Shown: piece by piece, positions 27,818 through 40,159 of the stretch
How the letters are laid out: every line of letters starts with the position of its first letter
Numbering within the stretch: the stretch's first letter is position 1
Sequence record: NZ_LR134445.1
Strand: one strand, 5' to 3'
DNA from: a plasmid
Length of the DNA stretch: 64,000 nt
Made by a program: the position numbers and the translations under genes
Notes under the pieces: generated by a model
Database searches by the model: none
The model's input: the letters and a program-made list of their open reading frames with translations, nothing else
What the model was told of the DNA's origin: nothing

Positions 27818-27905
27818 GGTGGCGTGTCCGAGCGGCCGAAGGTGCAGCACTCGAAATGCTGTGTGCGGTAACCCCGTACCGAGGGTTCAAATCCCTCCGC
27901 CACCG
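27818..27905 (+). tRNA. tRNA-Ser (anticodon CGA)
   Basis: GGTGGCG...CGCCACC-G acceptor stem. Anticodon loop CUCGAAA. Long variable arm. No encoded CCA. Confidence 0.85.
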
Positions 27906-28570
27906 CTGAGAGAGACCCTCTCCGACCCCGGTCGGAGGGGGTCTTTCCCGTTCCGGGCCCGGGTGCCCGGCGTGCGGCGCCGCGGGGTTCGCCGCAGCCA
28001 CCACTCGCAGAAGCCGATCGCGATCAGCCAGCTCGGCCACGCGACGATCGCCGGCCCCCACGAGTCCATGAAGGACTCCGGCACCCCGGCGGCGTCGAGG
28101 ACGAGGAACGAGATCGGGCCCAGGATCCGGTTGATGATCACCGAGTACATGAGCGCCGCGCTGCGCAGCATCCAGCGACGGTGGGCCGCCACGTCGCCGC
28201 CGACGATCGCCCGCACACCGAGCGCCGTGAACAGCAGCATCAGCGAGCCCAGCGTCACGTTGGACGCGGCGTTGACCGGCCCGAACGGCGTCACCGTGCC
28301 GATCGCGATGGCCGCGAGCCCGACGGGCAGCGCGCACGCGACGTAGATCCGGCCCGCGATCCAGTGGTACTTCGCGAACCAGCGGCGGCCCAGCTGCACC
28401 AGCCCGGCGAGCATCGCGACGGAGCCGAGCAGGATGTGCCCGACGAGCAGCCCGTAGTACCAGTTCGGCTGGTCGTCGAGCGGCACCCGGCTGCCGCCCG
28501 TGAGGTATGGGGGAAGGGAGTAGGCGAGGAAGACGAGCACCAGCAGGGCGCCCACCAGCAGTTTCTTCAT
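27887..28570 (-). CDS. DUF2306-like integral membrane protein
   Basis: Multi-TM protein (MKKLLVGALLVLVFLAY...). The Arg-rich C-terminal tail of the ORF overlaps the terminator and the 3' end of tRNA-Ser, so the true stop is uncertain. Confidence 0.6.
   Translation of the reverse strand: MKKLLVGALLVLVFLAYSLPPYLTGGSRVPLDDQPNWYYGLLVGHILLGSVAMLAGLVQLGRRWFAKYHWIAGRIYVACALPVGLAAIAIGTVTPFGPVNAASNVTLGSLMLLFTALGVRAIVGGDVAAHRRWMLRSAALMYSVIINRILGPISFLVLDAAGVPESFMDSWGPAIVAWPSWLIAIGFCEWWLRRTPRRRTPGTRARNGKDPLRPGSERVSLSGGGGI
27912..27946 (+). terminator. intrinsic terminator hairpin after tRNA-Ser(CGA)
   Basis: GACCCTCTCCGACC-ccgg-GTCGGAGGGGGTC followed by TTT. Confidence 0.5.
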
Positions 28571-29518: not shown

Positions 29519-29900
29519 AGAAGCCGATCGCCTTGTCGCCGCTGTCGCAGCGCGCGAGCATGCCGGGGGTCTGCGGGAACGTGCAGTTCCAGCCCTCGAC
29601 GGTGGCGGGCTTCGCCATCGCGATCTGCGGTCCGAAGGCGTTGGCGACGCGCATGGCCTCGGCGCAGTCGACCTTCGTGGTGCCCAGCGCGTGCACGTAC
29701 AGGGCGCCGTCGGGGCCGCGGGTCTGCCCGCACATCTCGGCGCGGGTCTCGGCCACCGTCGTCGTGGCCGACGGTGCGCCGGACGGCGCGGGGCTCGCGG
29801 CCGGGTCGGAGGAACTGCCGCAGCCCGCGAGGAGCAGGCCGCACACTGTTGCAGTTGCGACGGCTGTGACAGGCGTTGCGAAGTGCTGAAATGCGGTCAT
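29505..29900 (-). CDS. hypothetical lipoprotein
   Basis: Start MTAFQHF. Signal peptide with lipobox LLAGC. 131 aa. Confidence 0.5.
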   Translation of the reverse strand: MTAFQHFATPVTAVATATVCGLLLAGCGSSSDPAASPAPSGAPSATTTVAETRAEMCGQTRGPDGALYVHALGTTKVDCAEAMRVANAFGPQIAMAKPATVEGWNCTFPQTPGMLARCDSGDKAIGFFSSH

Positions 29901-30052
29901 GCCCTGCACGCTACCCGCGAACTGGTGATGAGCCTCACAAAAGTGCCGGTCAGCGACATTATTGCGGGCGGCAACGATCGGTACACTCGACAGCGACCCG
30001 TATCGCGCAGCCCGTCGCGCCTCGACGACCTGGAGTGACTCGCATGGCACTG

Positions 30053-33000
30053 TTCCTGTACCGGCTGGGGAGGTTCGCCTACCTCAACCGCTTCAAAGTC
30101 ATCGTGGCGTGGCTGCTGATCTTCGCCGGCATGCTCACCGGCGGCGCGCTTCTCAAGGGCGCCACGGTCGACAACTTCTCCCTGCCGGGTCTTCCCTCGG
30201 CGAAGGCGACGGACATCGTCTCCGAGAACTTCGGCGACAGCGGCGGCGACCCGTTCACCACCGCCTCGGCGACCATCGTCTTCCACACCAAGGACGGCAA
30301 GCTCACCGATCCGGCGGCCGCGGCGGGCATCGACCGCACGATCGCCGACCTCAAGAACCTCACCAAGGACCAGGACGGCCGTCAGGTCTCCGTGGTCCAG
30401 GATCCGGAGCTCCTGCACAACCCGACGGGCAAGCTGGACACCGACGCGCTGACGCCGGAGCAGCGCTCGAAGCTCGAGGCGGTCGCGGCGCAGGGCAAGG
30501 ACATCGCGTCGACCAAGACGCAGGCGCAGAAGGACGCCGACGCGGCGGCCACCTCGTCGGTGAGCCCCGACGGCAAGACCGCCAAGATCACGGTCGACTT
30601 CGTCGGCAAGGTCACGGAGCTGCCGGACACCCTGTCCGAGGACATCAAGAAGGCCCGCGAGGCCGGCGAGGCCGCGTCGAACGGCACGCTGCAGGTCGAG
30701 GCCGACGGTTCCGCCGCCCGCGGTGCCGAGGACATGGGCATGACCAGCGAGATCATCGGCATGATCGTCGCGGCGATCGTCCTGATCATCACCTTCGCCT
30801 CGCTCGTCGCCTGGGGCCTGCCGCTGCTGAACGCGATCATCGCGGTCCCGGTGGCCATCGGCGGCGTCATGATCGCCTCGCACTTCATCGAGCTCGGCAC
30901 CTTCCCCACGGTCCTGACCTCGATGATCGGCCTGGCCGTCACCATCGACTACGCGCTGTTCATCGTGTCCCGGTACCGGCACGAACTGCGGCGCCTCGGC
31001 GCCACCACCAAGGAGCAGCGGGCCGAGGCCGCGGGCATCGCCGTCGGCACCGCCGGCACCGCCGTGATCTTCGCCGGCCTGACGGTGATCATCGCGCTCG
31101 CCGCGCTCGCCTTCATCGGCATGGACTTCCTCGGTCAGATGGGCGTCGCCGCCGCGTGGGGCGTGTTCATCGCCGTCATCGTGGCGCTGACGCTGCTCCC
31201 GGCCCTGCTGGGCCTGTTCGGCTCCAAGGTCTTCGCCGGCCGGGTCAAGGGCCTGCATCCGCAGGACACGGACCAGGGCGAGGGCCGCGTCGCCAACGGC
31301 CTGCGCTGGGCCAACCTGGTCAAGAAGGTTCCCGTCGTGACCCTCGTCGCGGGCGTCGCCATCCTCGGCATCCTCGCCATCCCGATGAAGGACATGAAGA
31401 CCGCCCTGCCCGGCTCGGGCATGAGCGAGAAGAGCACGTCGGAGCGCCAGGCCTACGACCTCATCTCCGACGCCTGGGGCAAGGGCGCCAACGGCACCCT
31501 CCTCGTCGCGGTCGACGGTGCCGGGGCCCAGCCGAACCAGCGCCTGGGCGCCTACAAGCAGATCGTCGACCAGCTCAACACCAACCCCAACATCGCGCCG
31601 CTCATCGCGAACGCGCAGCTCGCCCAACTCGCGCAGGACAACAAGGCCGCCACCATCATGGTGACGCCCAAGTCCGGCCCGAACGACGACGACACCAAGA
31701 CGCTGGTCACCAAGCTCCGCACCATGACCAACGGTGACGCCGGCACGAAGGCGCGGCTCGGCGTGGACCTCGGCGTCGCGGGCAGCACGGCCATCGAGAT
31801 GGACATCTCGGAGAAACTCGGCGACGCGCTGTGGATCTACCTCGGAATCGTCGTGGGTCTGGCGTTCCTGCTGCTGCTCGTCGCCTTCCGCTCGATCCTG
31901 GTGCCGCTCACCGCGGTTCTGGGCTTCCTGCTGTCCGTCGTCGCCACGTTCGGCGTCACCTCCGCGATCTTCACCGACGGTGCCCTCGGCCTCATCGACA
32001 ACACGCAGCCGCTGGTCTCGTTCCTGCCGATCTTCCTGATCGGCATCGTCTTCGGCCTCGCGATGGACTACCAGGTCTTCCTCGTCTCCCGGATGCGCGA
32101 GGAGTTCGTGCACACCGGCGACGCCACACAGTCCGTGGTGACGGGCGTGCAGTACGGCGCCCGTGTGGTGACCGCCGCTGCGATCATCATGATCTCGGTC
32201 TTCGCCTCGTTCATCCTCAACGAGCAGGTCTTCATCAAGGAGATCGGCTTCGGCCTCGCCGCGGCCGTGCTGCTCGACGCCTTCGTCGTGCGGATGGTCC
32301 TGATCCCGTCGGTGATGATGCTGCTCGGCAAGTGGGCGTGGTGGCTGCCGAAGTGGCTCGACAAGATCCTGCCGAACGTCGACATCGAGGGCGAGGCGCT
32401 CGTCGCCCAGCTCGGCCGCGGCGACGCGAACGCCGATACCGCCGCGATCCCCGCGCCGATCACGGCCGAGATCCCGGTGCCCACCGAGCAGCTCGTGGCC
32501 GCCGGTGCGACCGATGTCCACGCCCGCGGCAAGGCGCGCGTCGAGCACGCCGGCGTGAACGGCCACACCAACGGCACCACCAACGGTGCCGCCCACGGTG
32601 CCGAGCTCCCGACGGCCGCCCCGACGGTGCCCGTGCCGCTGCCCCTCGGCAAGGACGACGAGCACGTCACGGAGCAGGCACCGGTGTACGCGGACACGGA
32701 GCAGGTCGCCACGGCGGAGGCGGACGCGGCGGAGGCCGGCGCACCGGACACCGCCGAGTACCCGGTCGCGCGTCCGGGCGTCCCGCGCCCCGACCAGACC
32801 GCGACGGGCCCGATCCGCCCGCGCGACCGGACCCGCGACGAGATCGCGCAGCTGCGCGAGCAGAACAAGGCGATCGCGGCGGAGCTCAGCGCGCTGCGCT
32901 CTGACTACCGGTCGATGGCCAGCCGCACGCGACTGCAGAGCGAGCACATCAGCGATCCCACGCGGTTCGAGATCGAGGGTCGCCTCGAGGGGCCCGACGG

Positions 33001-34216
33001 TCCGCTCGGCCGCGCCGGCCGGCTGCTCACGCCGCACGGCGAGATGCTCACCCCCGCGTTCATCCCCGTCGGCACCAAGGCGACGGTGAAGACCGTACTG
33101 CCCGAGGCGGTCTCGGAGCTGGGCGCGCAGGCGGTGCTGGCGAACGCCTACCACCTGTACCTGCAGCCCGGACCGGAGATCGTGGAGCAGGCCGGCGGCC
33201 TCGGCGCGTTCATGAACTGGGACGGTCCCACCTTCACCGATTCCGGTGGCTTCCAGGTGATGTCGCTCGGGTCGGGGTTCAAGAAGGTCATCGACATGAC
33301 CGGCGGCGAGGAACTGCAGGGCGACGACGCGATCGCCGAGGGCAAGGACCGTCTCTCCCGCGTCGACGACGACGGCGTGACCTTCCTCAGCCACCTCGAC
33401 GGCACCGAGCACCGGTTCACTCCGGAGCGGTCGATGCAGATCCAGCACCAGCTCGGCGCCGACGTGATCTTCGCGTTCGACGAGCTGACCACCCTGCACA
33501 ACACCCGCGCGTACCAGGTGGAGTCGCTGGAGCGGACCCGCCTGTGGGCGCGGCGCTGCCTCTCCGAGCACAACTGGCTCACCGCGCAGCGGCACGATGC
33601 GATCTCGCTGTGGGGCGTCGTGCAGGGCGCGCAGTACGAGGACCTGCGCCGCAAGGCCGCCCGCGACCTGCGGGCGCTGAGCGAGGAGGACCGGTTCTCC
33701 GGCGGCCTCGGCTTCGGCGGCTACGGCATCGGCGGGGCGCTGGAGAAGGCGAACCTGTCGACCATCGTGCGCTGGGTGAACCAGGAGCTCGAGGAGGACA
33801 AGCCGAAGCACCTGCTGGGCATCTCCGAGCCGGACGACATCTTCGCCGCGGTGGAGCAGGGCATCGACACGTTCGACTGCGTCTCCCCGTCGCGGGTGGC
33901 CCGCAACGGCGCGATCTACTCGCTCGACGGCCGCTACAACGTGACCAATTCGCGGTTCAAGACGGACTTCCGCCCGCTGGACCCGGACACGCAGAACTAC
34001 ACCTCGCAGTACACCCGCGCGTACATCCATCACCTGTTCAAGGCGAAGGAGGGCCTCGCGGCCACGCTGTGCACCATCCATAACGAGCAGTTCGTCGTCT
34101 CCCTGGTCGCGAAGATCCGGCAGTCGATGATCGACGGGACGTACTGGGACTTCAAGGAGGAGTTCCTGGGGCGCTACTACAAGGGCACCCAGCAGCACCT
34201 CGCCAAGTCCGACTAG
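30053..34216 (+). CDS. single ORF encoding an MMPL-family (RND) transporter fused through a ~180-aa low-complexity linker to a queuine/guanine tRNA-ribosyltransferase (Tgt)-like domain
   Basis: Start MALFLYRLGRFAYLNRF with 12 TM helices. The canonical MmpL C-terminal motif WWLPKWLDKILPNVDIEGE lies near 32400. No in-frame stop follows. The Ala/Pro/Thr-rich linker has high GC3. A complete Tgt fold follows: LLTPHGEMLTPAFIPVGTKATVK, FTDSGGFQV, LGADVIFAFDEL, GYGIGGALE, GIDTFDCVSPSRVARNG. Confidence 0.7.
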   Translation, partial: FLYRLGRFAYLNRFKVIVAWLLIFAGMLTGGALLKGATVDNFSLPGLPSAKATDIVSENFGDSGGDPFTTASATIVFHTKDGKLTDPAAAAGIDRTIADLKNLTKDQDGRQVSVVQDPELLHNPTGKLDTDALTPEQRSKLEAVAAQGKDIASTKTQAQKDADAAATSSVSPDGKTAKITVDFVGKVTELPDTLSEDIKKAREAGEAASNGTLQVEADGSAARGAEDMGMTSEIIGMIVAAIVLIITFASLVAWGLPLLNAIIAVPVAIGGVMIASHFIELGTFPTVLTSMIGLAVTIDYALFIVSRYRHELRRLGATTKEQRAEAAGIAVGTAGTAVIFAGLTVIIALAALAFIGMDFLGQMGVAAAWGVFIAVIVALTLLPALLGLFGSKVFAGRVKGLHPQDTDQGEGRVANGLRWANLVKKVPVVTLVAGVAILGILAIPMKDMKTALPGSGMSEKSTSERQAYDLISDAWGKGANGTLLVAVDGAGAQPNQRLGAYKQIVDQLNTNPNIAPLIANAQLAQLAQDNKAATIMVTPKSGPNDDDTKTLVTKLRTMTNGDAGTKARLGVDLGVAGSTAIEMDISEKLGDALWIYLGIVVGLAFLLLLVAFRSILVPLTAVLGFLLSVVATFGVTSAIFTDGALGLIDNTQPLVSFLPIFLIGIVFGLAMDYQVFLVSRMREEFVHTGDATQSVVTGVQYGARVVTAAAIIMISVFASFILNEQVFIKEIGFGLAAAVLLDAFVVRMVLIPSVMMLLGKWAWWLPKWLDKILPNVDIEGEALVAQLGRGDANADTAAIPAPITAEIPVPTEQLVAAGATDVHARGKARVEHAGVNGHTNGTTNGAAHGAELPTAAPTVPVPLPLGKDDEHVTEQAPVYADTEQVATAEADAAEAGAPDTAEYPVARPGVPRPDQTATGPIRPRDRTRDEIAQLREQNKAIAAELSALRSDYRSMASRTRLQSEHISDPTRFEIEGRLEGPDGPLGRAGRLLTPHGEMLTPAFIPVGTKATVKTVLPEAVSELGAQAVLANAYHLYLQPGPEIVEQAGGLGAFMNWDGPTFTDSGGFQVMSLGSGFKKVIDMTGGEELQGDDAIAEGKDRLSRVDDDGVTFLSHLDGTEHRFTPERSMQIQHQLGADVIFAFDELTTLHNTRAYQVESLERTRLWARRCLSEHNWLTAQRHDAISLWGVVQGAQYEDLRRKAARDLRALSEEDRFSGGLGFGGYGIGGALEKANLSTIVRWVNQELEEDKPKHLLGISEPDDIFAAVEQGIDTFDCVSPSRVARNGAIYSLDGRYNVTNSRFKTDFRPLDPDTQNYTSQYTRAYIHHLFKAKEGLAATLCTIHNEQFVVSLVAKIRQSMIDGTYWDFKEEFLGRYYKGTQQHLAKSD
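32918..34216 (+). other. tgt: Tgt-like domain within the fused ORF (possible internal start MASRTRLQ), lacking the Zn-binding cysteines
   Basis: The bacterial Tgt zinc site [22 protein letters not shown] is PLDPDTQNYTSQYTRAYIHHL here (Cys to Thr, Asn, Ser). Catalytic Asp residues are retained. An in-frame ATG at 32918 lies 11 nt after an out-of-frame TGA. Confidence 0.6.
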
Positions 34217-34250
34217 CGCGGCGGGGCGGGGCCGGCCGTAGGATTCGGAC

Positions 34251-35240
34251 ATGTCCCACGTGGTGGCGCTGCCCGTCTGCGACGGGATGACGATGCTCGA
34301 GTACGGCACCGTGCTGGAGGCGCTCAGCTTCGAGTGGAACGACCTCCCCTCGCTCGGCTACGACGTGCGCGGCTGCGGGCCGGCCGACGGGGTGCGGACG
34401 CTCGGCGGCGCGGTGCTGCGGCCGGCGTACGGACTGGACGAGATCGCGGGCGCCGACACCGTCATCATCACGGCCGTGTCGGACCCGCGGACCGATTCGA
34501 ACCCGGAGTGGCACGAGCCGCTGCGCGCGGCTGCGGCGAACGGCGCGCGGATCGTCTCGATCTGCACGGGTGCCTTCGCGCTCGCGGCGGCCGGCCTGCT
34601 CGACGGCCGGCGGGCCACGACGCACTGGCGCCACGCGGGCCTCCTGCAGTTCCGCTTCCCGCGGGTGCACGTCACGCCCTCGGAGCTCTACATCCAGGAC
34701 GGCCCGGTGCTCACCGGTGCGGGCTCCGCGGCGGGCCTGGACCTGTGCCTGCACCTGATCCGCTCCGATCACGGGGCCGGCACCGCGAATGAGGTGGCCC
34801 GCCGCCTCGTCGTCGCGCCGCACCGCGACGGCGATCAGTCGCAGTTCGTCAACATCGACACCCTGCGGCCCGACATGGACAAGCGCTTCGCCGACTTCCT
34901 GCAGGGTCTCGCGCACGGCATCGGCGGCGTCAAGGGGCTCGACGACATGGCGGCCCGCGCGGGCGTCTCCCGCCGCACCCTGCACCGCCGGTTCCGGCAG
35001 TACACCGGCGTCGCACCGCTGGAATGGCTGATGCGGCAACGGGTCTACCGCGCCATGCGGTTGTTGGAGACGACGAACGACTCCGTCACGGCGATCACCG
35101 GCCGCGCGGGTTTCGACGCCGAGGAGACGCTGCGCTACCACTTCAAGCGGCAGACCGGCCTCGCTCCCACCGCCTACCGTGAGCGCTTCCGCGGCAGCGA
35201 CGTGGGGCGCAGCTCCGCCCGGACGGTGGCCGGATCTTGA
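34251..35240 (+). CDS. GlxA-family transcriptional regulator (DJ-1/PfpI domain plus AraC HTH)
   Basis: N-terminal class-I glutamine-amidotransferase-like (DJ-1) fold (IVSICTGAFALAAAGLLDG). C-terminal AraC dual HTH. Confidence 0.85.
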   Translation: MSHVVALPVCDGMTMLEYGTVLEALSFEWNDLPSLGYDVRGCGPADGVRTLGGAVLRPAYGLDEIAGADTVIITAVSDPRTDSNPEWHEPLRAAAANGARIVSICTGAFALAAAGLLDGRRATTHWRHAGLLQFRFPRVHVTPSELYIQDGPVLTGAGSAAGLDLCLHLIRSDHGAGTANEVARRLVVAPHRDGDQSQFVNIDTLRPDMDKRFADFLQGLAHGIGGVKGLDDMAARAGVSRRTLHRRFRQYTGVAPLEWLMRQRVYRAMRLLETTNDSVTAITGRAGFDAEETLRYHFKRQTGLAPTAYRERFRGSDVGRSSARTVAGS

Positions 35241-35501: not shown

Positions 35502-36359
35502 TCAGAGCGGTAGCGTCCAGGGCTCGCGCGGCAGCCGCGCGGGGTCGAAGTCGTCGAGCATCTCGCGCGGCGTGCGACCGCGCAGCCCCAGGCTCGCGGC
35601 CAACTCGGGGAGCACCACCGCCGGCCCGCCGCGCTCGGCGAGGGTGACGGCACCGTCGCGCTTCGCGAGCCGGACGCCGGTGGGCCCCAGCACCATCGGC
35701 ACGTGGGCGTAGGTCGGAGGCGCCCCGCCGAGGAGGGTCGTCAGGTACGCCTGGCGGGGCGCGGAGGAGAGCAGGTCGTCGCCGCGCACCACCTGGTCGA
35801 CACCCTGCGCGGCGTCGTCGACCACCACGGCCAGGTTGTAGGCGTACGTCCCGTCGCCCCGTCGCAGCACGACATCGTCCACGGCACCGGTGTACTCGCC
35901 GTGCAGCAGATCCGTCACGGTGAACGACGGGACCGTCGCGCGCAGGCGCACCGCCGCCGGCCGCTCCCGCCGCCGGACCACCCGCTCGGCCTCCGTGAGG
36001 TCGCGGCAGGTGCCCGGGTACGCGCCCTCCGGCGCGTGCGGCGCCGACGGTGCGGCGAGGATCTCCCGCCGCGTGCAGTAGCACTCGTAGACGTCGAGCC
36101 GCTCCAGCGCCGCCGCGTAGCGTGCGGTTCGCTCCGACTGCCGCACCGTCTCGCCGTCCCAGTCCAGGCCCAGCGCGGCGAGGTCGGCGAGCTGTCGCGC
36201 CTCGGCACCGTCGGCCGTGCGGCCGGTGTCCAGGTCCTCGACGCGCATCAGGAAGTCCCGCCCCGTCGAGCGGGCGAAGAGCCAGGCGAGCAGGGCTGTC
36301 CGCAGGTTGCCCACGTGCAGGTCGCCCGACGGGCTCGGCGCGTACCGTCCAGCTGTCAC
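35502..36359 (-). CDS. gluQ: glutamyl-Q tRNA(Asp) synthetase
   Basis: Truncated GluRS catalytic domain: [23 protein letters not shown] (HIGH-class motif) and [11 protein letters not shown]. About 285 aa with no anticodon-binding domain. Confidence 0.85.
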
Positions 36360-37994: not shown

Positions 37995-39023
37995 GTGGAC
38001 CTCCCCGTGAACCCGCCGCTCGACCCGATGCTCGCCAAGGCCGCGAAAGCAGTGCCCGGCGAGGGCTACTCCCACGAGCCGAAGTGGGACGGCTTCCGCG
38101 CGCTGATCTTCCGCGACGGCGACGAGGTCTTCATCGGCTCCCGCAGCGGCAAGGACCTCGGCCGCTACTTCCCCGAGGTCGTCGCCGCGGCCCGGGCCGA
38201 GCTCCCCGAGCGCTGCGTGCTCGACGGGGAGATCGCCGTCGCCGTGCACCGCGAGGGCCGCAAGCGGCTCGACTGGGAATCGCTCTCCGCCCGCATCCAC
38301 CCCGCCGAGTCGCGCATCACGAAGCTCTCGGAGGAGACCCCGGCGATCTTCATCGGCTTCGACGCGATCGCCATGGCCGACGTGGATCTCACCGGTAAGC
38401 CCTTCAGCGCGCGCCGTCAGGTGCTCGTCTCCGCCTACGCCGGCACCGGGACCTGCAAGATCAGCCGCGTCACCACCGATGCGGATGCCGCCGCCGATTG
38501 GTTCGAGCGGTTCGAGGGAGCCGGGCTCGACGGGGTGATCTCCAAGCGGGTCGACGGGCACTACCTGCCCGGCAAGCGGGAGATGATCAAGGTCAAGCAC
38601 GCCCGCACGGGCGAGGCCGTGGTCATCGGGTACCGCCCGCACAAGTCGCAGCCGAACGCCGTCGGCTCGGTGTTGCTCGGTCTCTACCAGGACGGGCAGC
38701 TGCTGCCGATCGGCGGCATCGGTGCCTTCACCGCCGCCAAGCGGGAGGAGTACCTGCAGCTCCTCGAGCCCATGCGTACCGCCGACTCCGTGCAGGGCGA
38801 GCCCAACCGCTGGGCCACCCCGGAGAAGACGGGGGAGTGGGTGCCCGTGCGCCCCGAGCTGGTCGTCGAGTTCGACTACGACCAGATGGAGGGCATGCGC
38901 CTGCGGCACACCGCCAAGTTCAAGCGCTGGCGCCCCGACCGCGAACCGTCGAGCTGCGGCTACGACCAGCTCGAGGTCCCCGTCAACTACGACCTCGACG
39001 ACGTCCTGCAGGAGGGGGAGTGA
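37995..39023 (+). CDS. ATP-dependent DNA ligase (LigC/LigD ligase-domain type)
   Basis: Adenylation motif I EPKWDGFR (KxDG). N-terminus MDLPVNPPLDPMLAK is typical of mycobacterial LigC/LigD ligase domains. OB-fold C-terminus. Confidence 0.85.
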   Translation: MDLPVNPPLDPMLAKAAKAVPGEGYSHEPKWDGFRALIFRDGDEVFIGSRSGKDLGRYFPEVVAAARAELPERCVLDGEIAVAVHREGRKRLDWESLSARIHPAESRITKLSEETPAIFIGFDAIAMADVDLTGKPFSARRQVLVSAYAGTGTCKISRVTTDADAAADWFERFEGAGLDGVISKRVDGHYLPGKREMIKVKHARTGEAVVIGYRPHKSQPNAVGSVLLGLYQDGQLLPIGGIGAFTAAKREEYLQLLEPMRTADSVQGEPNRWATPEKTGEWVPVRPELVVEFDYDQMEGMRLRHTAKFKRWRPDREPSSCGYDQLEVPVNYDLDDVLQEGE

Positions 39024-40111
39024 TGGCCAAGGCCCCGGCAGCCGAGGTGATCGTCCCCGGGCCCGACGGTGACCGCCCCGTTCGGGTCTCGAGCCCCGAC
39101 CGGATCATCTACCCCGCCACCGACCTCACGCCAGAGGTGTCCAAACTTCAGGTGGCGCAGTACTTCGCCGCCGTCGGCGAGCCGCTGCTCGCGGCCATCG
39201 GTGACCGCCCCACCGCGCTCGAACGCTGGCCCGGCGGAGTCCATCCCGGCGGCCGGCTCGCGCAGGGCCCGCAGGACAAGGACGCCGACGGCTTCTACCA
39301 GAAGCGGATGATGAAGGGCGCGCCCGAGTACGCGCAGACGGTGCGCATCGCCTTCCCGTCCGGCCGCCCCGCCGACGAGCTGTGCCCCTCCGAGATCGCC
39401 ATCCCGGTGTGGTGTGCGCAGATGGGCACCATCACCTTCCATCCGTGGCCGGTGCGCAGCGCCGATGTCGACCATCCCGACGAGCTGCGGATCGATCTCG
39501 ATCCCCAGCCGGGCACCGACTTCCACGACGCGGTCCGCGTCGCGGGCATCGCCCGTGAGCTGGCGGACGACCTCGGCCTGCGGGCGTACTGCAAGACCTC
39601 CGGCAACCGTGGCGTGCACGTCTTCATCCGCATCGCGCCGCGCTGGGACTTCGTGGACGTGAGGCACGCCGCGATCGCGTTCGGCCGCGAGCTGGAGAAG
39701 CGCGACAGCGGCGTCACCACCGCGTGGTGGAAGGAGGAGCGGGGGGAGCGGATCTTCGTGGACTACAACCAGAACAGCCGCGACCGCACCATCGCCTCCG
39801 CATGGTCGCTGCGCGCCGTGCAGGGCGCCACCGTCTCCACCCCGCTCACCTGGGATCAGCTGGCGGAGCTGAAGGACCCGCACGAGCTCAACCTGTTCAC
39901 CGTGCCCGAGCGCCTCGCCGACGGGAATCCGTGGGCCGACATCGACGAGGTCGCGCACGACCTCACACCCCTGTTGGATCTGTGGGAGCAACACCCCGTC
40001 GAGCTGAACTACCCGCCCGACTACCCGAAGATGCCCGGCGAGCCTCCGCGCGTGCAGCCCAGCAAGAAGGTCGCCGAGCACTGGGACGCCGAGGGCAACC
40101 GCATCGAGTAG
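39023..40111 (+). CDS. LigD-type primase-polymerase (PolDom/Prim-Pol) protein
   Basis: Overlaps the ligase stop as TGATG. Archaeo-eukaryotic-primase hallmark KTSGNRGVHV, and FVDYNQN. Confidence 0.85.
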   Translation: MAKAPAAEVIVPGPDGDRPVRVSSPDRIIYPATDLTPEVSKLQVAQYFAAVGEPLLAAIGDRPTALERWPGGVHPGGRLAQGPQDKDADGFYQKRMMKGAPEYAQTVRIAFPSGRPADELCPSEIAIPVWCAQMGTITFHPWPVRSADVDHPDELRIDLDPQPGTDFHDAVRVAGIARELADDLGLRAYCKTSGNRGVHVFIRIAPRWDFVDVRHAAIAFGRELEKRDSGVTTAWWKEERGERIFVDYNQNSRDRTIASAWSLRAVQGATVSTPLTWDQLAELKDPHELNLFTVPERLADGNPWADIDEVAHDLTPLLDLWEQHPVELNYPPDYPKMPGEPPRVQPSKKVAEHWDAEGNRIE

Positions 40112-40159
40112 CCGATCACCGTCCACGCGCGGTTCACGGAGGTCTGGTAAGCACAGGGC

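Follow-up and report, generated by a model that had tools for sequence, protein, structure and literature searches.

Loss of the zinc-binding cysteines from the probably functional tRNA-guanine transglycosylase domain of a Tsukamurella MMPL fusion protein

The tRNA-guanine transglycosylase (TGT, Tgt) of Shigella is a long-studied drug target, and the zinc subdomain of TGT forms its dimer interface. A zinc-binding subdomain has been described for bacterial, eukaryotic and archaeal tRNA TGTs; phage DpdA alone was noted to be without two of the four ligands (PMC5699537). Most Actinomycetota and Mycobacteriales have kept tgt alone (PMC11130926; PMC11570991), and two TGT fusion proteins of T. paurometabola, Tpau_4044 (MMPL-TGT) and Tpau_0550 (MFS-TGT), have been listed as candidate transporters of queuosine (Q) precursors (PMC11130926, Epigenomes 2024). 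We analyzed a 64,000-nucleotide stretch of sequence record NZ_LR134445.1 (the window), which encodes an ortholog of Tpau_4044: an MMPL-TGT fusion protein of 1,390 residues (30044..34216, + strand). The TGT domain of this protein has lost all three zinc-binding cysteines. On balance we think it fairly probable that it is a functional, zinc-free Tgt domain on a membrane-anchored Tsukamurella protein and that it inserts salvaged queuine. The fusion and the prediction of queuine salvage have already been published; the zinc-free site, and the fact that it has arisen repeatedly in the Tgt family, appear to be unreported. We found no literature report of a natural zinc-less tRNA TGT, and the word "zinc" is absent from the two closest queuosine-salvage papers.

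The window protein was aligned with PDB chains by phmmer and, by MAFFT, with 246 homologs together with the Z. mobilis and E. coli references. The Z. mobilis numbering agrees with the PDB alignment and is used here for ligand and active-site positions. The structure of Z. mobilis TGT was matched with E ~1e-88, and phmmer pairs PLDSECHCAVCQKWSRAYIHHL...TEHN with PLDPDTQNYT-SQYTRAYIHHL...TIHN of the window protein. Cys318 is thereby replaced by Thr (33989-33991), Cys320 by Asn (33995-33997) and Cys323 by a gap or Ser (34004-34006), and a one-residue deletion accompanies these replacements. The former zinc knuckle, PLDPDTQNYTSQYTRAYIHHL, spans 33974..34036, and the Tyr, Tyr and His residues of the dimer interface follow the Thr/Asn/Ser positions. 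From the zinc site of the Tgt family (Cys318-x-Cys320-x-x-Cys323...His349) only His349 has been kept; its codon (34079-34081) lies in a CTIHNEQ motif (34070..34090). An earlier note on this DNA had described three lost cysteines and a retained histidine, and both phmmer and MAFFT agree with it. The structural fourth ligand is the histidine of TIHN, not that of HHL; both are present. A misplacement of the cysteines was considered and rejected, because no alternative CxC or CxxC motif, and no Cys of any kind, lies nearby and three independent alignments concur.

The catalytic motifs are intact, as the earlier note had also stated. FTDSGGFQV (33233..33259, with the equivalent of Asp102 at 33239-33241) and GIDTFDCV (33860..33883, with the equivalent of the nucleophile Asp280 at 33875-33877) are invariant in alignment A1. 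Asp102, Ser103, Asp156, Gln203, Gly229, Gly230 and Asp280 are all kept in the MAFFT alignment, and Tyr106 is replaced by Phe, as in E. coli. The equivalent of Asp156 (33479-33481) is part of an FAFDELTT motif (33470..33493); Gly229 and Gly230 belong to GGALEKA (33731..33751). Against the Tgt equivalog model TIGR00430 the window protein scored 377-381 bits at a cut-off of 306.75. The archaeosine TGT (TgtA) model TIGR00432 yielded 102-108 bits vs 350, and the protein ends 40 residues past the zinc subdomain, where the C-terminal C1/C2/PUA domains of TgtA would be expected.

The loop that follows the equivalent of Asp102 carries a clade-specific insertion of ~25 residues (SLGSGFKKVIDM...RVDDDG, 33263..33376). 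This insertion is absent from Z. mobilis TGT, contains the residues Lys124, Val125 and Met128 (numbered within the domain), which are invariant in A1, and is conserved across the actinobacterial clade. It was modeled with low confidence and may contact tRNA.

A non-tRNA substrate such as DNA, as for DpdA, had been offered as one option in the earlier note. The DpdA model NF041059 gave 16.7 bits vs 200, and no dpd, restriction or DNA-modification genes are found near the fusion gene in the window, except for an unrelated LigC/primase pair. The gene of a glutamyl-Q tRNA(Asp) synthetase (GluQRS) is linked to tgt. In addition, the window protein retains Asn70, Arg286, Arg289 and Lys52, which we take to be tRNA-contacting positions of Z. 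mobilis TGT. The option of a DNA substrate thus found no backing in our data beyond the general precedent that TGT paralogs have been recruited to DNA modification (PMC5699537), and we consider it extremely unlikely.

To see how widely the zinc site has been lost, we compared the 120 closest database proteins, which are roughly 65-97% identical to the query. The Cys triad is missing in 83 of them and CxCxxC is kept in 37, the latter being 66-71% identical to the query. In a neighbor-joining tree all 83 zinc-free sequences fall into one clade made up of Tsukamurella, Gordonia, Williamsia and Jongsikchunia. Its sister group consists of zinc-bearing enzymes from Rhodococcoides, Rhodococcus, Mycolicibacterium and Sediminivirga. 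The monophyly of the 83 sequences therefore implies a single ancestral loss. The zinc-free motif is itself conserved, as [TIMVL]-x-N-[YF]-[TSA]-[ST]-Q-Y: within the clade the Cys320 position is invariantly Asn and the Cys323 position Ser or Thr. Stand-alone orthologs from Gordonia and Williamsia carry the same motif. Five substitutions (F233W, D268G, H365Q, M380G and F410Y) were fixed alongside the zinc loss and are candidates for compensating changes.

The ratio of non-synonymous to synonymous substitution rates (dN/dS) of the TGT domain, calculated according to Nei and Gojobori, was 0.10 relative to T. ocularis and 0.22-0.25 relative to Tsukamurella sp. 8F; these values are rough, since the genome has a third-position GC content of ~95%. 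The domain is under purifying selection. An AlphaFold2 model of the TGT domain, calculated from an alignment of 66 sequences, had an overall predicted local distance difference test score (pLDDT) of 82.8 and a predicted template modeling score (pTM) of 0.85. The former zinc subdomain (residues 331-400) reached pLDDT values of 90-96, and low values were confined to the termini, residues 55-58 and the insertion (residues 112-145). A Foldseek superposition of the model with Z. mobilis TGT resulted in a TM score of 0.92 and a root-mean-square deviation of ~2.1 Å. Of the dimer-interface residues, Lys52, Phe92, Tyr330, His333 and Glu339 are unchanged in the alignment, and a Tyr stands in place of Trp326. 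The model thus predicts that the fold of the zinc subdomain is retained, and both the fold and the interface residues are those of the Tgt family; dimerization itself is a prediction.

Since the motif is conserved throughout the clade, dN/dS is low, the catalytic residues are invariant and the fold is modeled with confidence, we discarded the possibility that the gene is a decaying pseudogene. A related explanation is that the TGT domain is now a pseudoenzyme, which no longer catalyzes a reaction but binds ligands for the transporter or regulates it, or that it stands at an early stage of decay. The fusion to a transporter and a clearly degenerate paralog in the same genus (see below) would fit this explanation, and the lost site is said to be essential from mutagenesis in E. 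coli. Yet all catalytic and base-recognition residues are invariant, the equivalog score exceeds its cut-off and dN/dS lies between 0.1 and 0.25. Moreover, the stand-alone orthologs of Gordonia and Williamsia share the zinc-free motif, and of the two genes of the tgt family counted in T. paurometabola this is the sole catalytically intact one, while GluQRS has been kept. A pseudoenzyme is therefore very improbable. The description of the domain as an active but divergent transglycosylase in the earlier note remains sound in so far as the domain looks competent, scores above the equivalog cut-off and is under purifying selection; the connection drawn there between zinc loss and specificity does not (see below). 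Taken together, the alignments and the model suggest that the TGT domain is probably a working, zinc-independent variant of Tgt.

This clade is not the only one to have lost the zinc site. We inspected the 115 catalytically intact representatives of 50%-identity clusters that were nearest to the query. At least two zinc cysteines are missing in 23 of these; one is truncated, another is a degenerate MFS-type paralog and ~21 are bona fide cases. A Devosia cluster (P0314, 358 members) combines the zinc-free state with a canonical DEC/GGLAVGE pocket. The pocket is often canonical as well in the further zinc-free representatives, which include P0261, P0274, P0290, P0317, P0335 and P0355. In P0274 a His-rich sequence, GHHHEH, is found at the former knuckle. 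Judged from these sequences, the three-cysteine knuckle has been lost independently in ~20 other catalytically intact Tgt lineages; these independent losses show that the zinc site is dispensable in evolution.

The same comparison bears on the question whether a metal could still be bound through remodeled ligands, for example His389 (the equivalent of His349 in domain numbering) together with His372/His373 or nearby Asp/Glu residues. The histidine of the fourth ligand is strictly kept both in the zinc-free clade and in the degenerate paralog, and the HH pair and several acidic residues are close by. Thr, Asn and Ser, however, are poor zinc ligands, and the first position varies between Thr, Ile, Leu, Val and Met, which makes it unfit for a ligand role. 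Other zinc-free lineages have lost the His349 position too (Ile in Devosia; Asn, Gln or Ala in others). We thus regard a remodeled metal site as distinctly improbable, and the domain would probably be free of metal at this position.

The base pocket differs from that of preQ1-type enzymes, which feature Cys158 and Leu231-Ala232-Val233-Gly234-Glu235. Cys158 is replaced by Leu (33485-33487), and the pocket loop following the two glycines, GGALEK, is three residues shorter than GGLAVGE(GQD). The changes from DEC to DEL and from GGLAVGE to GGALEKA had been pointed out before and are confirmed by the alignment. In domain numbering, Gly273, Gly274, Ala275 and Lys278 are invariant in A1, and Leu276 and Glu277 are conserved to at least 90%. 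DEL and GGALEK are equally common in the zinc-bearing sister enzymes. The pocket change is hence older than the zinc loss and independent of it, as CxCxxC-containing sisters carry it too, and the implied tie between zinc loss and altered specificity has to be given up.

In Z. mobilis TGT, Cys158 and the Val233 segment exclude queuine. Neither is present in the window protein. A second line of evidence on the substrate comes from the genetic context. GluQRS attaches glutamate to the cyclopentenediol of Q34 in tRNA-Asp. Its gene, gluQ (35502..36359, - strand), is a functional neighbor that lies 1.3 kb downstream of the fusion gene and was recognized by NF004315 (311 bits vs 250) and TIGR03838 (299 bits vs 276.7). 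In each of the four Tsukamurella loci examined a GluQRS gene adjoins tgt; in Rhodococcoides, Williamsia and Gordonia such a gene is found within 2-8 kb of tgt. The conserved GluQRS therefore indicates a tRNA substrate and a full queuosine product. A Pfam survey of ~50 open reading frames (ORFs) in the window revealed none of the other queuosine genes (queA, queG/H, queCDEF). The window contains no recognizable preQ1 riboswitch, and a scan upstream of the fusion gene detected neither this nor any other known RNA, whether the gathering threshold or a limit of E<=5 was applied. For T. paurometabola a published table gives tgt=2, lists queA, queG/H and queCDEF as 0 and carries the label 'q salvage'; Gordonia and Corynebacterium follow the same pattern (PMC10570037 Suppl. 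S4). Because these genomes appear to lack queA, queG/H and queCDEF but possess GluQRS, direct insertion of queuine is favored. Among the options named in the earlier note, queuine salvage is the one best supported, by the adjacent GluQRS gene and by this table.

An active enzyme might instead insert preQ1 (or preQ0), which would then not be processed further. For preQ1 such an end point has been suggested in Bartonella henselae, which also has tgt only (PMC11570991, PMC11130926). The sister cluster in Rhodococcoides contains Vut_1/QPTR, from a family known for the uptake of preQ0 and preQ1, and the pocket of the window protein is without the GG[LS][AS]G signature of queuine-inserting enzymes. 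On the other hand, GluQRS, whose gene is a conserved neighbor of tgt, depends on the cyclopentenediol of queuosine, and the two elements that exclude queuine, Cys158 and the Val233 segment, are both absent. In our judgment preQ1 as the end product is unlikely.

Based on the alignments, the model and the gene context we propose the following scheme for insertion of salvaged queuine. TGT would be the cytoplasmic, C-terminal domain of a membrane-anchored fusion protein. The CxCxxC knuckle would have been swapped for a polar/hydrophobic turn, [TIMVL]-x-N-Y-T-[ST], which is one residue shorter, in an ancestor shared by Tsukamurella, Gordonia, Williamsia and Jongsikchunia, and the fold of the zinc subdomain and the dimer interface would have survived without the structural zinc. 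Catalysis is predicted to be unchanged, with a nucleophile of the Asp280 type and a general acid/base of the Asp102 type, as is base recognition by Asp156, Gln203 and Gly230. The shortened GGALEK loop, in which the Val233 region is missing, and the exchange of Cys158 for Leu could provide room for a larger base. Most likely, salvaged queuine is then inserted directly into tRNA-Asp, -Asn, -His and -Tyr.

Several points weigh against this reading. Chong, Garcia and co-workers (in Biochemistry, 1995) reportedly found that zinc-ligand mutants of E. coli TGT neither bound zinc nor were active, and the naive expectation from that mutagenesis is therefore that loss of the site inactivates the enzyme. 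We found no actinobacterial Tgt that has been characterized biochemically, and the roughness of the dN/dS values has been mentioned. MMPL/RND and DHA2-type MFS proteins are typically exporters. An MmpL protein of Corynebacterium propinquum, when tested in E. coli, failed to import preQ1 (PMC11130926). The signature of queuine-inserting TGTs is GG[LS][AS]G (PMC11570991) and the window motif is GGALEK; because the pocket motif does not match, queuine specificity rests on gene context. The alignment of GGALEK up to Glu235 is also ambiguous without coordinates. Finally, the absence of the other Q genes refers to the published T. paurometabola table and to the 64-kb window of this genome.

The TGT domain is part of a single, stop-free ORF (29876-34216, + strand), in which the interval of the earlier note (32918-34216) is contained; that note had overlooked the fusion. 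Translation is predicted to start at the ATG at 30044, which is preceded by GGAG 9 nucleotides upstream. The resulting 1,390-residue protein is 100% identical to P0121 of the T. tyrosinosolvens cluster, and T. tyrosinosolvens is the most likely source species. It shares 80% identity over its full length with P0128, i.e. UniProt D5UNC0 (T. paurometabola Tpau_4044). A Pfam search found MMPL (PF03176, E=2.1e-87) in two stretches of the N-terminal part of the ORF and TGT (PF01702, E=2.7e-113) at residues 1045-1435 of the ORF translation, so that both families are present on one polypeptide orthologous to Tpau_4044. The MMPL (RND-type) membrane transporter domain comprises ~785 residues (30044..32400), and unfused MMPL homologs of ~780 residues are 46-50% identical to it. 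Within residues 16-724 of the fusion, ten stretches of 20 residues stood out as hydrophobic in a crude hydrophobicity scan. A fast-evolving linker of low complexity, rich in Ala, Pro, Thr and Glu, follows (32401..32830) and leads in frame to a pre-TGT helix (32831..32914) with a leucine-zipper-like heptad pattern, I..L...N..I...L..L. Some assemblies list the catalytic domain of 433 residues (32915..34213) as a Tgt protein of its own. The start given for it in the earlier note, 32918, is one codon too late, since this annotation begins with the Met codon at 32915.

We considered whether a separate tgt gene shares the MMPL frame by chance in GC-rich DNA. MMPL and TGT are likewise read in a single frame in T. 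ocularis, in Tsukamurella sp. 8F and in T. soli, and full-length fusions of 1348-1394 residues occur in T. paurometabola, T. spumae, T. serpentis and others. The linker has a dN/dS of ~0.8 and many indels, and its frame is open in every Tsukamurella fusion examined. The initial Met of the 433-residue Tgt in the PGAP annotation is Thr or Ile in two species, and no Shine-Dalgarno sequence was found before 32915. The pre-TGT helix of 28 residues has a dN/dS of 0-0.4, and its E, L, N, AAEL, L and YR residues are invariant across MMPL-TGT and MFS-TGT fusions. It was modeled as one long helix (pLDDT 72-82) within an otherwise poor AlphaFold2 model of helix and TGT (18 sequences, overall pLDDT 56), which we used for the helix call only. 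The persistent frame, the unconserved Met, the missing Shine-Dalgarno sequence and the conserved helix rule out chance overlap, and the fusion is predicted from these features to be translated as one protein. The heptad pattern with its core Asn (I..L...N..[IL]...L..L) is missing from the stand-alone Tgt of Gordonia and Rhodococcoides and may constitute a dimerizing zipper. An antisense ORF of 1,470 codons (29897-34309, - strand), which covers the whole fusion, was rejected as a GC-rich shadow, as its third-position GC content is unfit for coding.

The annotation of the fusion is inconsistent across Tsukamurella assemblies. For L001:5003-8000, L005:2812-6000 and L006:2954-6000 only the last 419-436 residues were called ('Tgt') and the 3-kb MMPL part was left uncalled; other records annotate the full fusion of ~1,390 residues. 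In T. soli (L005:3760-7281) only ~750 MMPL residues are in frame with TGT, the N-terminal part being encoded in a different frame, and the MMPL entry at NCBI (P0130) is marked 'partial'; either a frameshift or a sequencing error accounts for this.

Unfused neighbors are found in related genera. In Williamsia soli the MMPL gene and tgt are adjacent and separated by a gap of 52 nucleotides. Rhodococcoides kroppenstedtii (L008, 32-9754) has the order MMPL-ABC-ABC-TGT, followed by QPTR(Vut_1)-RDD-GluQRS on the opposite strand. This cluster, which belongs to a zinc-bearing sister enzyme and includes two ABC half-transporters, is apparently a Q-salvage cluster. An RDD protein recurs near tgt in Williamsia. 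Because MMPL and tgt lie close together unfused in Williamsia and Rhodococcoides, the fusion is considered to be derived from an older operon.

Tsukamurella has a second tgt-family gene, which encodes an MFS-TGT fusion of the Tpau_0550 type with a DHA2-type transporter. In T. soli it is located at L007 4033-7236 and encodes 1,067 residues; the set includes P0423-P0431, and the fusion is also present in T. tyrosinosolvens (P0562, P0563). It is the second tgt in the COG count of T. paurometabola (tgt=2). In the tree its TGT part forms a long branch next to the Tsukamurella Tgt, and it is zinc-free too. Asp156, Gln203, Gly229, Lys52, Phe92 and the insertion after the catalytic Asp (here counted as 35 residues) have been lost; Asp280, Tyr330, His333, Glu339, the Asn at the Cys320 position and His349 have been kept. 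Conservation is highest in the former zinc subdomain, which is 61% identical to that of the window protein; the other TGT segments are 39-50% identical (insertion and C-terminal helix excluded). Because active-site residues are missing and the TIGR00430 score of 294 bits lies below the cut-off of 306.75, MFS-TGT does not amount to a canonical spare Tgt. Of the two tgt-family genes in the T. paurometabola count, only the type represented by the window gene was found to be catalytically intact, and within the 64-kb window a tblastn search for a second Tgt matched this gene alone. The earlier note had raised a second canonical tgt, combined with decay of the gene studied here, as an objection; the genus does have a second tgt, but that copy is the degenerate one and the window gene shows no decay.

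The two proteins could form a membrane-tethered, zinc-free heterodimer of catalytic MMPL-TGT and degenerate MFS-TGT, paired through the former zinc subdomain and the shared zipper-like helix. Such a complex might be an independent analog of QTRT1/QTRT2 and couple queuine transport across the mycomembrane-bearing envelope to insertion into tRNA. We offer this as a conjecture that we ourselves hold to be rather doubtful.

The window is part of a high-GC (~72%) core chromosome and carries dnaX, recR and the signal recognition particle (SRP) RNA. A gene for a tRNA adenosine deaminase-associated protein (TIGR03941; 26699-27304, + strand) is located upstream of the fusion at a distance of a few kb; its T. 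ocularis counterpart is followed by a TadA-like deaminase. This is another tRNA-modification locus. A tRNA-Ser gene is located at 27818-27906 of the window. Further downstream, an ATP-dependent DNA ligase gene (37995-39023, + strand) is followed by an ORF at ~39023-40150 (+ strand); the syntenic T. ocularis locus has a LigD-type primase-polymerase gene. Tsukamurella loci conserve this LigC/primase pair downstream of gluQ; it has no bearing on the zinc site.

A whole actinobacterial clade and ~20 further lineages offer natural templates for studying how the subdomain and the dimer are stabilized without a metal. They raise the question whether, as with DksA2, the zinc loss is a response to scarce zinc or to oxidative stress, and whether the annotation 'Tgt' hides functional diversity. 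The results refine queuosine-salvage predictions for Mycobacteriales, provide a candidate bacterial pair of a catalytic and a non-catalytic TGT and flag the inconsistent annotation of fusion genes in several Tsukamurella assemblies.

Compared with the enzymes of Z. mobilis and E. coli, the window domain is alike in its fold, the pair of catalytic aspartates, the guanine-recognition residues and most residues of the dimer interface. It differs from them by the missing three-cysteine knuckle, the C158L exchange, the short loop and the insertion as well as by the added MMPL domain, linker and heptad helix. With the queuine-inserting enzymes human QTRT1 and Chlamydia trachomatis bTGT it would share the tgt-only genomic signature, which is tabulated for T. 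paurometabola, and, like these, is without Cys158 and Val233. Queuine TGTs, however, carry GG[LS][AS]G where the window Tgt has GGALEK, and QTRT1 keeps its zinc site (PMC5699537). For D5UNC0 the published description (PMC11130926) gives the same architecture as that of the window gene. The word "zinc" occurs 0 times in that paper, and the degeneration of the active site in the MFS paralog is unmentioned.

Replacement of a cysteine-based structural zinc site with retention of function is familiar from DksA2 and the C-minus ribosomal proteins (concept: PMC11672702), which the window Tgt would resemble in this respect. Those proteins are extra, Zur-regulated paralogs beside a zinc form, whereas the window Tgt is the sole catalytic copy and its zinc-free state is fixed in the clade. 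MFS-TGT, in turn, can be likened to the non-catalytic, eukaryotic QTRT2, which also combines a degraded active site with a conserved dimerization region and exists alongside a catalytic paralog. Unlike QTRT2, it is bacterial, zinc-free and fused to an MFS transporter, and it arose by an independent, genus-specific duplication; by analogy it might form a heterodimer.

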